Shown here: piece by piece, positions 1 through 3,938 of the stretch
Layout: each line of letters begins with the position of its first letter
Position numbering within the stretch: position 1 is the stretch's first letter
DNA from: a virus
Taxonomy: Duplodnaviria > Heunggongvirae > Uroviricota > Caudoviricetes
DNA: 5,854 nucleotides
Virus record (IMG/VR): IMGVR_UViG_2703719354_000007
Strand: one strand, 5' to 3'
Notes under the pieces: generated by a model
What the model was told of the DNA's origin: nothing
The model's input: only the letters and a program-made list of their open reading frames with translations
Databases searched by the model: none
Program-made: the position numbers and the translations under genes

Positions 1-362
1 CCCGCCACAAAATTCACCGCATCCAGAAAACGGGCATACACCCGGCGGCGGACCACCGTGGCCCCCACCAGGCTCTGCAGGTCCTCCGCCATCCCGGTGA
101 CCAGACCAAACAGATTGGACACCGTCAGCGACGGTCTGGCACTGCTGCCCTTCCCGTTCATCTCAAAACCGCTGCCGTCAATCGGGTATACCTGATATTG
201 CCGCCCCTGCCAGGTGACCGGCTCCCCTTTTTCATTCAGCTCATTACAGAAAAAATACCGCTCACCGCCCTGCACCGTCAGGTCAATTTCCCAGAGCACC
301 ACCCGCGGTGACTGCTCTGATTTAACCGACTCGTTCAGGCTTTCTTCATGAATATTCTGCAT
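1..362 (-). CDS. L: Minor tail protein L, N-terminal 120 codons only; the gene continues past the window start. ATG at 362..360.
   Basis: Minus-strand frame is open from the ATG at 362..360 to position 1. My translation begins MQNIHEESLNESVKSEQSPRVVLWEIDLTVQGGERYFFCNELNEKGEPVTWQGRQYQ...VVRRRVYARFLDAVNFVAG, which closely matches phage lambda gpL as I recall it (motifs VVLWEIDLT, GERYFFCNE, NEKGEPVTWQGRQYQ, VRRKVYARFLDAVNFV). The start overlaps the M stop by 1 nt (TGATG). Not in the ORF track because it has no stop inside the window. Confidence 0.88.
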   Translation of the reverse strand, partial: MQNIHEESLNESVKSEQSPRVVLWEIDLTVQGGERYFFCNELNEKGEPVTWQGRQYQVYPIDGSGFEMNGKGSSARPSLTVSNLFGLVTGMAEDLQSLVGATVVRRRVYARFLDAVNFVA

Positions 363-703
363 CAGTTCACCACCTGCTCAATCGTACAACTGAAATCACT
401 GTACCTGGCGTTATCTGTGACGCTCCACTCCCGGCATACCACCCTCACCGTCCGGTTATGTTTCGGCGGTCGCCACAAAAAGGCACGGTAACCACCATGC
501 CACGATAAAAACTCTTCCAGCCATCGCCGGGTCGCCTCATCCGTCACCCGGAACACCGCCTGAAACGTCTTCAGTCGGGCATTAAGTCCCGTCGGGCGGC
601 GCTGTTCATAACCGTCACCAAACCGTACCCTCGCCACCGACGGTTTCTCACTCACCTGCATCCCTTCACGCGGGACCAGATGCAGCGTTTTTATCTCAGC
701 CAC
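362..703 (-). CDS. M: Minor tail protein M (113 aa), GTG start at 703..701
   Basis: ORF-track protein MAEIKTLHLVPREGMQ...VRFGDGYEQRRPTGLNARLKTF...FLWRPP...IEQVVN resembles lambda gpM as I recall it (VRFGDGYSQR, LNANLKTY, C-terminal EQVVN). The initiation codon on the minus strand is GTG (plus-strand cac at 701..703), preceded by GGAGG (plus 712..716) at 8-nt spacing. The start overlaps the last codons of the tape measure gene (696..703). Synteny H-M-L as in lambda. Confidence 0.9.
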   Translation of the reverse strand: MAEIKTLHLVPREGMQVSEKPSVARVRFGDGYEQRRPTGLNARLKTFQAVFRVTDEATRRWLEEFLSWHGGYRAFLWRPPKHNRTVRVVCREWSVTDNARYSDFSCTIEQVVN

Positions 704-3700
704 TCAGCATTCCTCCGTCACGTCGCATGGACAGCATCACCGCCTGCACCCGCTGGTCAATCAGCTGCACAAGACTGCCTGCCGCCTCCGGCCCTATCTG
801 GCCATTAGTCCCGTCATTCTGAATGGCGATATGGTAGACCGGGGAATACACCAGGCCCGCACTGCCGTACATACTACCCACCGCGCGCACACCCAGCGAG
901 CCATCCGCCGCCCGCGTCAGGGGCATAATGGCTTCAGGTCCGGCCTCCCCCATCAGCCCGGCCCCTTTTGCAAAGGCAAAGTACGTGGGCGTATCCACAA
1001 TACTGTTGCTGTACGCACTCAGGTTTGCCGAGGTATACACGCCGCCTTTTGCATTGGCCACCGCCCCGCCCAGCCAGTCACCAATGCTGCCGAGAAATCC
1101 TCCCGCACCGGACATACCGTTTGCCGCCGTCTTAATTCCGTTGACAATCGCGGCATTCATAAGAACTTTTGATATTTCCTGCAGCACTGATGAGGCCCAG
1201 CTGCGCCATTCCACTTTATTTCCGTTCAGCATCTCCGTGATGTTATTCACCATCCCTGAGATACCCTCCGTCGCAAGCTGTGCTGCCTGTGAGGCGTAAT
1301 CGGACGCATTATCCACCCAGTTACTGAATCCCTCCTGCAGCCCTTTCTGCCAGTCCGCACGCTGCACATCCGATTCGGCATAAAAGGCTTCCTGCTCTTT
1401 CAGACGTTCACTCAGATACTGTGCATTCTGCGCCAGCGCCTGTCTGTAAAAATCCTCACTGATATCCCCGGTCTGATACTGAGACTGAAGGTCCGCATCC
1501 TTCTGGCGGAAGCTGTCGCGGATCTGCTGCAACTCCCGCATGCGTTCCCTGGCTCGTTCTCCCTGCCCGTACCCCAGCAGTTCGGCTTCATTTGATGCAC
1601 GCGCAGCCGCATTCTCATTCTTCAGGGTCTCTTCCCGGGATCGCAACTGTTCCCGGATTTTTTGCTGGTCAATCAGGGCCGCGTTACGCAGCAGCTCCTG
1701 CTTCTGTATCTCCGACAGGGTTTTCAGTTCACCCAGCGCTGTCTGGTACTTCAGCTTCGTCAGTTCTGTATTCTGACCCGCCAGTGCCAGTTGCTCTTTC
1801 TGCTGCTTCAGTAGCCGGGAAAAACTGTCTTCCGCTTTTTCCGTCTCTGATTTTCCACCCCGGGATTTGGGTTTATTCGCCTCGTTATTGCGCCAGGCTT
1901 CCAGGGCATTACTGATATAACGCTGTCTCGCCTCCTGATACGAATCCCCCACAAAACCAAGGTCATCCGCCGCATACCCCAGCCGGGCACGCTCTTTTTC
2001 TTCCCCTTTCAGTCTGGACAGGGCCAGCTCACGCTCTGTTTTTGTCAGGGCACTCTGCTGTTTATCATCCAGAGTGGCCTGTGGCAGCCGTAACGGCACA
2101 TTCACCAGTCCCTGCCGCTGCTGAAGCAGTTCATTACCCAGCCCCAGCAGACGGTTGAATTCCGTATGCTGACCGTTCATAACCAGCATGGACTGGTACA
2201 CCTTATTCTGCTCTGCCGCCTGCTGACGAATTAACGCCACACGACGGTCTTCCAGCCCGGCAAGCACATCCTGAATGGACTGCGCTTTTTCCTGCATCTG
2301 TGCCAGACGGGACTGCTCAACGGCAAGCTGCTCTGTTGCCTGAGCAAGCCCTTCCGTCACGGTCTTCACCGATGTCAGATGGTTTATCATGAATCCGTCA
2401 CCGGTTCTCCAGCCAGGGTTAGCCAGAACATACTGATATCCAGCGATTTTTTCCTGCAGGGATTTCACCCGGCTGGCCTGTTCATCAATCAGCCGGTTCT
2501 GCTCTGTCAGCGCCGCCCGTGTTCGTCCTTCATTATCTGAGGCTTCAGGCAAAGACATTGACGGCGTTTTATGCGCGATTTCATCTATCGTCAGTGCATA
2601 CTGGCGCGCAGACTCCCTGGCCTGCTCCTGATTCTGGTACAGCGTGTACCATGCTGCAGCCCCCAGCATCACCAGTCCGGGTACGCCACCAACCAGCCCC
2701 AGCGCACCGCTCATCAGACGTGAGCCCACCGCCGTTGTACTGTTCAGCGCATTCTGGGCGGCGCTTCTGGCAGCAATATTTCTGTTCAGGCGTTCCTGTG
2801 TGGCCGCCAGACGGGCCTCTGCAGCAATCTGCATCTCCGTCCCGCGGGCTGCCGCCACGGCCTGCTGAGCACGGTACACGGCTGCCCTTGCCCGCGCCGT
2901 GGCAATCTGCGTTCCCCTGAACTGTGCTTCCGCCAGTGCAACTTCATTACGTGCAGCCGTCACAAGTCCTGCCGTGGCAGACACCGCTCCGGAGGCCATA
3001 TTGCCAAAGTACCGGGCAACCCCGACGGCAACCAGCGCACCCACGGCTGTTGCCACATTATCAATCTGTCCGGCAACACCGTTCAGCACGCCGGAGAGCG
3101 TTTTTGTCACCCCGCTGGCCTCATTCGCACCGCCCACCCAGGCCATAAAGGCGTTTTCCACCTTTGTGATACTACCGGAAACCGTTTCCGGCATGGCCGC
3201 ATATTCATCACGTAATATCCCCAGCTGGCTGATTAACGCAGGGACCACTTTATCCGCTGTCAGTTTTCCGTCATCCGCCATTGCCTTCAGATCTTTACGG
3301 GCCACACCCATCCCCGCAGCAAGCGCGCGGATCACCCGGTCGCCATTTTCGTTAACAGCATTAAATTCTTCGCCACGCAGTACACCCTGTGCCAGTGCCT
3401 GGCTGAACTGGGTGATCACCGAACCGGATTCCGCAACTCCAGCCCCTGACAGTTTCAGTCCTGTCGAAATGGCCTCCGTCACCTTCAGCACATCATCAGC
3501 ACTGTAACCATATTCACGCATTGAGGCTGCCGAGCGGGCAAACAGGGCCGCATTATCTGAAAATGCCGTGCCCGTCCGCTGGCTGATATCCATCAGCACT
3601 TTCTGTGATGACGAAAATTCATCGGATGACTGCGACGCCTGTTTCAGTCGGGCATTCACGGAACTCCATTCATCGGCCAGAGAAATCAGGTGTCCGGTGG

Positions 3701-3938
3701 CAAAGGCACCTGCAAATGCCCCCGCCGTTCCGGCAGCTGAAGCGCGGATTTCCGTCAACTGGCTGTTCAGCTCAGCCAGGGCGCGTCGCTGCTCCCGGGC
3801 GACTGCGGCAGCCTGACGCCCGCCATTCTGCAGGGTCCGGTAATATTCACTGCCCATGCGGGAAGCCCGCTGGATCTCCGACTGGAATGACTGCGAATTT
3901 GCCGAAATTTTGATAATCAGTTCACGTAACGTCGCCAT
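696..3938 (-). CDS. H: Tail tape measure protein (gpH-like), 1080 aa
   Basis: A 1080-aa ORF sits between the tail chaperone genes and M/L. It is Ala/Gln/Glu/Arg-rich with long predicted helical stretches and hydrophobic Gly/Ala/Val segments (about aa 283-325 and 408-434). The C-terminal region (...HIAIQNDGTNGQIGPEAAGSLVQLIDQRVQAVMLSMRRDGGMLSG) resembles the lambda gpH C-terminus (NNDGTNGQIGPAALKAVYDMARKGARDEIQTQMRDGGLFSG, recalled). ATG at 3938..3936 is preceded by GGAGAAAGGTGA. Confidence 0.92.
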   Translation of the reverse strand: MATLRELIIKISANSQSFQSEIQRASRMGSEYYRTLQNGGRQAAAVAREQRRALAELNSQLTEIRASAAGTAGAFAGAFATGHLISLADEWSSVNARLKQASQSSDEFSSSQKVLMDISQRTGTAFSDNAALFARSAASMREYGYSADDVLKVTEAISTGLKLSGAGVAESGSVITQFSQALAQGVLRGEEFNAVNENGDRVIRALAAGMGVARKDLKAMADDGKLTADKVVPALISQLGILRDEYAAMPETVSGSITKVENAFMAWVGGANEASGVTKTLSGVLNGVAGQIDNVATAVGALVAVGVARYFGNMASGAVSATAGLVTAARNEVALAEAQFRGTQIATARARAAVYRAQQAVAAARGTEMQIAAEARLAATQERLNRNIAARSAAQNALNSTTAVGSRLMSGALGLVGGVPGLVMLGAAAWYTLYQNQEQARESARQYALTIDEIAHKTPSMSLPEASDNEGRTRAALTEQNRLIDEQASRVKSLQEKIAGYQYVLANPGWRTGDGFMINHLTSVKTVTEGLAQATEQLAVEQSRLAQMQEKAQSIQDVLAGLEDRRVALIRQQAAEQNKVYQSMLVMNGQHTEFNRLLGLGNELLQQRQGLVNVPLRLPQATLDDKQQSALTKTERELALSRLKGEEKERARLGYAADDLGFVGDSYQEARQRYISNALEAWRNNEANKPKSRGGKSETEKAEDSFSRLLKQQKEQLALAGQNTELTKLKYQTALGELKTLSEIQKQELLRNAALIDQQKIREQLRSREETLKNENAAARASNEAELLGYGQGERARERMRELQQIRDSFRQKDADLQSQYQTGDISEDFYRQALAQNAQYLSERLKEQEAFYAESDVQRADWQKGLQEGFSNWVDNASDYASQAAQLATEGISGMVNNITEMLNGNKVEWRSWASSVLQEISKVLMNAAIVNGIKTAANGMSGAGGFLGSIGDWLGGAVANAKGGVYTSANLSAYSNSIVDTPTYFAFAKGAGLMGEAGPEAIMPLTRAADGSLGVRAVGSMYGSAGLVYSPVYHIAIQNDGTNGQIGPEAAGSLVQLIDQRVQAVMLSMRRDGGMLSG

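Follow-up and report, generated by a model that had tools for sequence, protein, structure and literature searches.

A probable HK97-type shaft and lambda-type tip mosaic, joined near the 3' end of the tape measure gene in an Escherichia coli prophage lineage

Where in a lambdoid tail gene cluster does one type of sequence give way to another, and does the change fall between genes or inside one of them? This question was raised by a 5,854-nucleotide (nt) stretch of Caudoviricetes DNA, IMG/VR record IMGVR_UViG_2703719354_000007, the whole of which is called the window below. Every long coherent open reading frame (ORF) of the window is carried by the minus strand, and all genes, domains and motifs described here lie on that strand. 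They encode the parts of a tail shaft, including a tape measure protein (TMP), and the first proteins of a tail tip, M and L. A first-pass annotation had regarded M, L and the C-terminus of the TMP as lambda-like, and the N-terminal region of the TMP, the tube protein and the terminator as unlike lambda; a recombination junction in the 3' part of the TMP gene had been proposed. From the analysis reported here, the window is very probably a fixed, ancient three-tier mosaic of a widespread lambdoid prophage lineage, in which an HK97-type shaft is joined to a lambda-type tip inside the TMP 3' end. Tier A would run from window position 5854 to ∼876 and contain the HK97-type shaft set, namely a gp10-like protein, the terminator, an immunoglobulin (Ig) tube protein, G/G-T and TMP residues 1–1021. 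Tier B (875–362) would comprise the last ∼60 TMP residues and M, of the lambda supertype but of a distinct, divergent subtype. Tier C (381–1, and on into K, I and J in relatives) would be a close lambda-type tip.

HK97-type and lambda-type parts of the window

The TMP (696–3938) is a protein of 1080 amino acids (aa) of the HK97 gp16 type. It matched gp16 over its full length, with 52% identity between TMP residues 1–1076 and gp16 residues 1–1079 by BLASTP. Three Pfam domains were found in it, all above the gathering score: TMP_3 (PF20155) at TMP 83–272 (window 3123–3692), Phage_HK97_TLTM (PF06120, E 1e-89) at TMP 395–686 (window 1881–2756) and Tape_meas_lam_C (PF09718) at TMP 862–933 (window 1140–1355). 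The same three domains were found in HK97 gp16, whereas the architecture of lambda H and N15 gp16 is TMP_2 followed by Tape_meas_lam_C. The last domain was common to the window TMP, lambda H, HK97 gp16 and N15 gp16; it belongs to both TMP types and is not evidence of a junction. For the other shaft proteins, identity to the HK97 counterpart was 81% (gp10 C-terminus), 48% (terminator), 68% (tube protein) and 63% (the chaperone G). All genes upstream of the tip were nearer to HK97 than to lambda, and, judged from these comparisons, the non-lambda part of the window is plainly of the HK97 type.

In the comparison with lambda, no significant pairwise match was obtained for TMP residues 1–300 against H (BLASTP, E 0.6), for the tube protein against V (best E 0.005 over 25 aa) or for the terminator against U (E 0.05), as the first-pass annotation had supposed. 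The lambda shaft (U, V, G, T and the H body) is unrelated to that of the window at the pairwise level. For the tube proteins of the window and lambda, kinship was detected at the profile level only, by cross-hits on phrog_158 and phrog_41. The different Ig decoration that had been suspected was also confirmed by Pfam, in that the C-terminal domain of the window tube protein (residues 149–227) was of the Ig_3/I-set kind and that of lambda V was Big_2. The mosaic had been assigned to positions 1–3938, and this interval was too narrow, with the tube and terminator genes lying outside it.

At the other end of the window, the encoded proteins were nearest to lambda. L, a minor tail or tip protein of which the N-terminal 120 aa are present (3–362, cut by the window edge; PF05100, E 1e-40), was of the close lambda type. 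It shared 95/119 residues with lambda L (80%, E 2e-72, BLASTP), and its identity to the HK97 and N15 counterparts was 35% and 34%, respectively. M, the distal tail ring protein (113 aa, 362–703; PF05939, E 8e-29), was of the lambda supertype but of a distinct subtype, with 53/111 residues identical to lambda M (48%, E 2e-32, BLASTP), 35% identity to HK97 and 33% to N15. Thus, each of the two proteins was nearer to its lambda counterpart than to that of HK97 or N15, and in this respect the earlier description of L and M held. At the nucleotide level, a match to lambda was found by BLASTN at window 7–381 only (78%), beginning 19 nt before the start codon of L, and no match to lambda was found for M. 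The rest of the tip (K, I and J) lies outside the window and was judged to be of the lambda type from a 96.6%-identical relative, phage YYZ-2008. The identity of YYZ-2008 to lambda was 78% for L, 86% for K, 66% for I, 73% for J and 45% for M; its K, I and J showed 32–36% identity to HK97. By sequence, the similarity of the TMP tail and M to lambda is no more than distant (37–48%), and the close lambda-like block (78% nt identity) begins at the M/L boundary.

Position of the switch and pattern among related loci

The sliding identity of TMP residues 961–1021 was 60–100% to HK97 gp16 and 7–28% to lambda. In a four-way alignment, TMP 990–1019 exhibited 80–100% identity to HK97 and 20% to lambda. 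Identity to HK97 dropped from 15/15 residues (TMP 1005–1019) to 4/15 within 20 residues, and in TMP 1035–1049 11/15 residues were identical to lambda and 4/15 to HK97. A conserved hinge, EAGPEAIMPLTRAADGSLGVRAVG (TMP 998–1021, window 876–947), was an exact 24-residue match to HK97 gp16 997–1020; the lambda hinge, GIVHRGEFVFTKEA...RIGVGNL, differs from the GEAGPEAIMPL of the window. The motif NDGTNGQIGP (TMP 1041–1050, window 789–818) was an exact 10-residue match to lambda gpH 811–820. Because the HK97 run ends at TMP 1021 and the lambda run starts 20 residues on, at TMP 1041, the alignments locate the switch from HK97 to lambda at TMP 1022–1040 (window 819–875), ∼60 codons upstream of the TMP stop codon. 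At the nucleotide level, window 886–975 was 73–90% identical to HK97, and homology to HK97 ended at window 877. As judged from the alignments, the switch of nearest relative is abrupt, as is typical of a module junction. BLASTP against lambda, HK97 and N15 together with sliding identity along the TMP, as had been suggested for the proposed junction, was enough to place the switch in the 3' part of the TMP gene, close to where it had been predicted.

The C-terminal tail of the TMP (residues 1022–1080, window 699–875), a predicted tip-docking peptide, grouped with lambda gpH and aligned to gpH 800–850. The alignment of the last ∼60 residues with the gpH C-terminus, which had been made by eye together with the NDGTNGQIGP motif, was reproduced: the last 62 aa aligned without gaps to the gpH tail with 19/51 identical residues (42 bits, E 2e-12). 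The score of the TMP tail was 42 bits against the gpH tail and 20 bits against the HK97 tail (gapped). Four profiles, phrog_17344, phrog_10930, phrog_4346 and phrog_6747, were hit by both the window and lambda tails, and the HK97 tail hit none of them. Besides NDGTNGQIGP, the window tail shares the end RDGG..SG with lambda. The HK97-type tail reads ...IDGNGNTSTQ...RPGGDIWNAMKGTR, and the end motif of HK97 was absent from the tail of the window.

The lambda-similar stretch of the TMP was longer than the ∼60 residues first described. By BLASTP, TMP 754–1080 matched gpH 510–850 with 27% identity over 365 columns (E 4e-21), so that similarity extends over ∼330 aa, and nothing upstream of residue 754 matched. 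This whole match was considered as the lambda-like segment and rejected, since HK97 gp16 shares the Tape_meas_lam_C domain and is nearer to the window across 754–1021. What stood of the original estimate was that the nearest relative switches near the last ∼60 residues.

For the population pattern, 80 related IMG/VR loci were obtained through the M alignment and 80 through the C-terminal third of the HK97 TMP. The relatives of M in IMG/VR were bimodal, with identity of either ≥93% or ≤49%. In one locus, L023, the shaft genes and the greater part of the TMP shared 55–80% nt identity with the window. At window ∼1065–365, which holds the last ∼100 TMP codons and M, identity rose to 91–100%, followed by a drop at the M/L boundary; the L protein of this locus was 98% identical to lambda L. 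In L023, both ends of a naturally exchanged cassette can be seen, and since one of them lies at the M/L boundary, exchange at that point does happen. Other lineages were also found to carry one flank only. TMPs with TMP_2 and TMP_4 bodies (L037 type; 26% identity to the lambda N-terminus) carried lambda-type tails (68%) and lambda-type M (93%). N15 (L004) is a mirror-image mosaic with reversed polarity, in which a lambda-type shaft and TMP body (60% identity to lambda H) is combined with an HK97-type tail (29 vs 13 bits), M and L, encoded by the C-terminus of gene 16 and genes 17 and 18; N15 L was 77% identical to HK97 L. As in the window, the TMP tail of N15 matches the tip genes in type, and the TMP body does not.

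Co-variation of the tail with the tip was observed among 51 non-redundant loci with HK97-body TMPs. The identity of the tail correlated with that of the next gene product with r = 0.85, and with a partial r = 0.78 given the body, while the partial r of the body with the next gene was 0.24; the Mantel p was ∼5e-4. The hinge was near-invariant in the 51 TMPs and conservation collapsed right after it; related loci had been fetched with peptide patterns that included EAGPEAIM, so the conservation of the hinge arises partly by construction. Behind the hinge, at least six unrelated tail types were found among the HK97-body TMPs, each with its own type of downstream protein, and six to nine tail clusters mapped almost one-to-one onto clusters of tip proteins. 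Several of the loci (L115–L128, L136 and L155; L156, L159 and L163) combined HK97-body TMPs and the same hinge with quite different C-tails. Their downstream tip proteins were outside the M family, being either 157 aa long and starting MADIFYPDEY... or 194–198 aa long.

The subtype of M was also compared with the type of tube protein. Loci with a lambda-V-type tube protein, even at 55% identity, had a lambda-type M, and those with an HK97-type tube protein had either the M type of the window or a related type (L098). L was of the lambda type (92–98%) in all loci used for this comparison. Hence, the M subtype follows the tube type while L stays of the lambda type.

Neighbouring features and the prophage lineage

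Upstream of the TMP, the window encodes a set of shaft proteins. At its edge are the C-terminal 16 codons of an HK97-gp10-family protein (5804–5854), with 13/16 residues identical to the gp10 C-terminus; this family is also the annotation of the partial gene in YYZ-2008 and in an E. coli RefSeq record. It is followed by the tail terminator or tail completion protein (114 aa, HK97 gp11 type, 5463–5807; PF11367, phrog_347 'tail terminator') and the major tail tube protein (238 aa, HK97 gp12 type, 4680–5396; phrog_158), the identity of which to gp12 (68%) was measured over 234 aa. In the 66-nt gap between the terminator and tube genes, a GC-rich hairpin, CCCGC-CGCGT-GCGGG, was observed at window 5419–5433 (minus strand), followed by TTTTTTATTA. 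This arrangement looks like an intrinsic transcription terminator in sequence, and a putative terminator is annotated at the equivalent spot between gp11 and gp12 of HK97. In YYZ-2008, the annotated tube ORF is longer and spans the gap that holds the hairpin in the window.

The tail assembly chaperone G (124 aa, HK97 gp13 type, 4291–4665; PF06222, E 2e-61) ends in ...AGA AAA AAG TAG. The slippery heptamer A AAA AAG (4294–4300) is in phase and stands directly before the stop codon of G (4291–4293). From window 4315 on, frame analysis showed the −1 frame, that of T, to be open; the ATG of T itself would start an ORF of 93 aa (3986–4267) with a Phage_tail_T domain (PF06223, E 5e-19). A programmed −1 frameshift from G into T would be predicted to yield a G-T fusion like those of lambda (G/GT) and HK97 (gp13/gp14), and the G/G-T frameshift arrangement is shared with HK97. 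In the RefSeq annotation, T is a separate 93-aa ORF. Further downstream, the M gene, which starts with GTG at 703, shares 8 nt with the end of the TMP gene (696–703), and the ATG of L overlaps the M stop as ATGA (360–364); both are translational-coupling overlaps. The content and skew of guanine and cytosine showed no step at either junction, and composition was uninformative here.

The TMP body was itself found to be internally mosaic. Its residues 1–280 were ∼85% identical to HK97 gp16 by sliding identity, with a nucleotide match to HK97 of 73.5% over window 3104–3938; from residue ∼280 (window ∼3100), identity fell to ∼30% (residues 280–700). In L008 and L013, otherwise close relatives, a middle segment of the TMP (window ∼2255–3004) was replaced by one that is 18 aa longer, with no nucleotide match at 2697–2994.

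The entire 5854 nt were found by megablast at 96–97% identity in 91 phage records, which included Stx1a-, Stx2a- and Stx2c-converting phages, YYZ-2008, phage 2851 and JLK-2012. Of 5426 complete E. coli genomes, 1242 also contained the window (best chromosome match, 98.3%), and the number of matching places per genome had a median of 2 and a maximum of 12. The window belongs to a widespread lineage of lambdoid siphovirus prophages in E. coli, represented by YYZ-2008, phage 2851, JLK-2012 and Stx1a/Stx2c converting phages, and covers the tail shaft and the proximal part of the tip. In YYZ-2008 (Pankowvirus), phage 2851, JLK-2012 and the Stx1a/Stx2c prophages of E. coli O157 and other Shiga toxin-producing E. 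coli, the gene order was the same as in the window (gp10-like, terminator, Ig tube, G, T, TMP, M, L). The architecture of the YYZ-2008 lineage was alike throughout, and the differences were confined to small patches in which identity was lower. A uniform resemblance to a single known phage had been named beforehand as an observation that would speak against mosaicism. Such similarity was literally found (96–98%, to YYZ-2008 and others), and it indicates that the mosaic is old, fixed and many times sequenced, not that it is absent.

One of the patches, window 3305–3454, was ∼75% identical to YYZ-2008 and L005 and 98.7% identical to a prophage of E. coli WP7-S17-ESBL-04, with flanks of 95–100% identity to all three. 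Judged from the sequence, gene conversion between co-resident prophages appears to have produced this short tract. Downstream of the window, the gap between L and K was an insertion hotspot in relatives: an anti-repressor (ant) gene lies between L and K in YYZ-2008 (L002, 12879–13802), and an IS66-family element disrupts K in the closest E. coli copy (L166, E. coli AP022177, 15202–18652).

The object is therefore already known as a sequenced, named and annotated phage lineage, carried by roughly one in four complete E. coli genomes. Mosaicism of lambda-type and HK97-type tail genes is classical lambdoid mosaicism, and the case of the window is real but ordinary. No published description of the TMP hinge/tail boundary or of the tail of this lineage was found in a search that did not take in the older HK97/HK022 mosaicism literature, where a prior description may exist.

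Alternatives and a possible adapter cassette

In lambda, the J-I-L-K tip complex is assembled first; the TMP then joins with G/G-T, M completes the initiator, and the tube polymerises around the TMP. Accordingly, there would be two co-adapted sets: the TMP body with the chaperones and the tube protein, and the C-terminal peptide of the TMP with the tip proteins. By analogy with lambda, we infer a docking rationale, and with it any selective explanation of the join: the TMP C-terminal peptide would dock in the tip complex, with the gpI tripod inside an L/J hub and the M ring as a cap. Recombinants that cut the TMP just after the hinge (...GEAGPEAIMPLTRxxDGSLGVRAVG) would keep both sets of contacts, and the join may sit just after the hinge because only such recombinants would do so. 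The hinge would serve as a structural boundary and would at the same time supply a stretch of homologous DNA. In structures of the lambda tail, gpH 818–849 forms a three-helix coiled coil on the gpI trimer or tripod in the tip lumen, below the gpM ring, and the documented partner of the gpH C-terminus is gpI, not M or L (PMC10721106, PMC12617516). This part of gpH aligns to window TMP 1048–1079, although the helix residues are poorly conserved. The earlier suggestion that the junction keeps the TMP C-terminus matched to the tip is reasonable and agrees with the structures; the partners it named, M and L, are not the documented one.

Could the junction lie at gene boundaries only, between the TMP and M or between M and L, the lambda motif at the TMP end having been kept from an ancestor or having arisen by convergence under a common structural constraint? 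The nominal identity of the tail is in keeping with this, being 37% to both lambda and HK97, as are the loose pattern ending R.GG that all four tails share and the clear nucleotide-level homology to lambda, which starts only at window 381. However, the fall in HK97 identity from 15/15 to 4/15 within 20 residues occurs where there is no gene boundary, and the four PHROG families are common to the window and lambda tails and absent from that of HK97. The cassette of L023 starts inside the TMP gene, ∼100 codons before the stop, and N15 exhibits the reciprocal pattern. A junction confined to gene boundaries was thus regarded as unlikely. A far smaller chance was given to an HK97-like ancestor that diverged at uneven rates along the operon without any recombination. 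TMP sequences are known to diverge fast, and identity to HK97 varied from 12% to 95% along the TMP; but the nearest relative flips, being lambda for M and L and HK97 upstream, and the N-terminal domains of the TMPs belong to different Pfam families, TMP_3 and TMP_2. A switch of nearest relative cannot arise from uneven rates alone, and a recombination junction is therefore required. It is also scarcely credible that a chimeric assembly or a recent laboratory artefact joined two prophages. Assemblers can be confused by the several similar lambdoid prophages of an E. coli genome, but the same contiguous arrangement was found in the 1242 complete genomes and 91 phage records, with independently sequenced isolates among them, and the reading frames are intact and translationally coupled.

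Several observations nevertheless weigh against an old HK97-type to lambda-type join within the TMP gene and the docking that may underlie it. The tail is only 37% identical to lambda, and a gapped alignment to the HK97 tail gave 37% as well; its lambda-likeness therefore rests on score, the exact motif and profile membership. The contact seen in the structures is with gpI, and the structures are for lambda only. Physical adjacency alone would favour co-inheritance of the tail with M over that of the body with M, and the mapping of tails to M was not strictly one-to-one, with HK97-type M occurring with at least three tail types. The way in which the loci were fetched bears on the conservation of the hinge, as stated above. 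The step from 48% to 80% between M and L may stem from a higher rate of evolution in M and not from a second junction. For the window itself, either origin may apply; N15 compared with HK97 showed a like gradient, with 33% identity for the tail, 39% for M and 77% for L.

Within the mosaic with its HK97-to-lambda switch just after the hinge, M may have a particular part. One of its faces is in contact with the first ring of the tube and the opposite face with L, and M may be an adapter that tracks the type of shaft. It is tentatively suggested, with rather less confidence than doubt, that the last ∼60 TMP residues and M form a small exchangeable adapter cassette, running from the hinge to the M/L boundary, which may fit one shaft type to unrelated tip complexes. 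This is the only part of the analysis that might be new, and its basis is comparative patterns only.

As a discovery, the locus is of small value, because it is found in named Stx-converting phages and its mosaicism is textbook knowledge. The useful outcome is a precise map, in which the join of shaft and tip is placed within 19 codons (TMP 1022–1040), in agreement with the structural placing of the TMP C-terminus in the tip. For phage engineering and TMP annotation, the pattern across the window, N15, L023 and many IMG/VR loci suggests the practical rule that the last ∼60 residues belong to the tip module and not to the ruler. If the adapter cassette were general, it would be a design rule for chimeric siphovirus tails.

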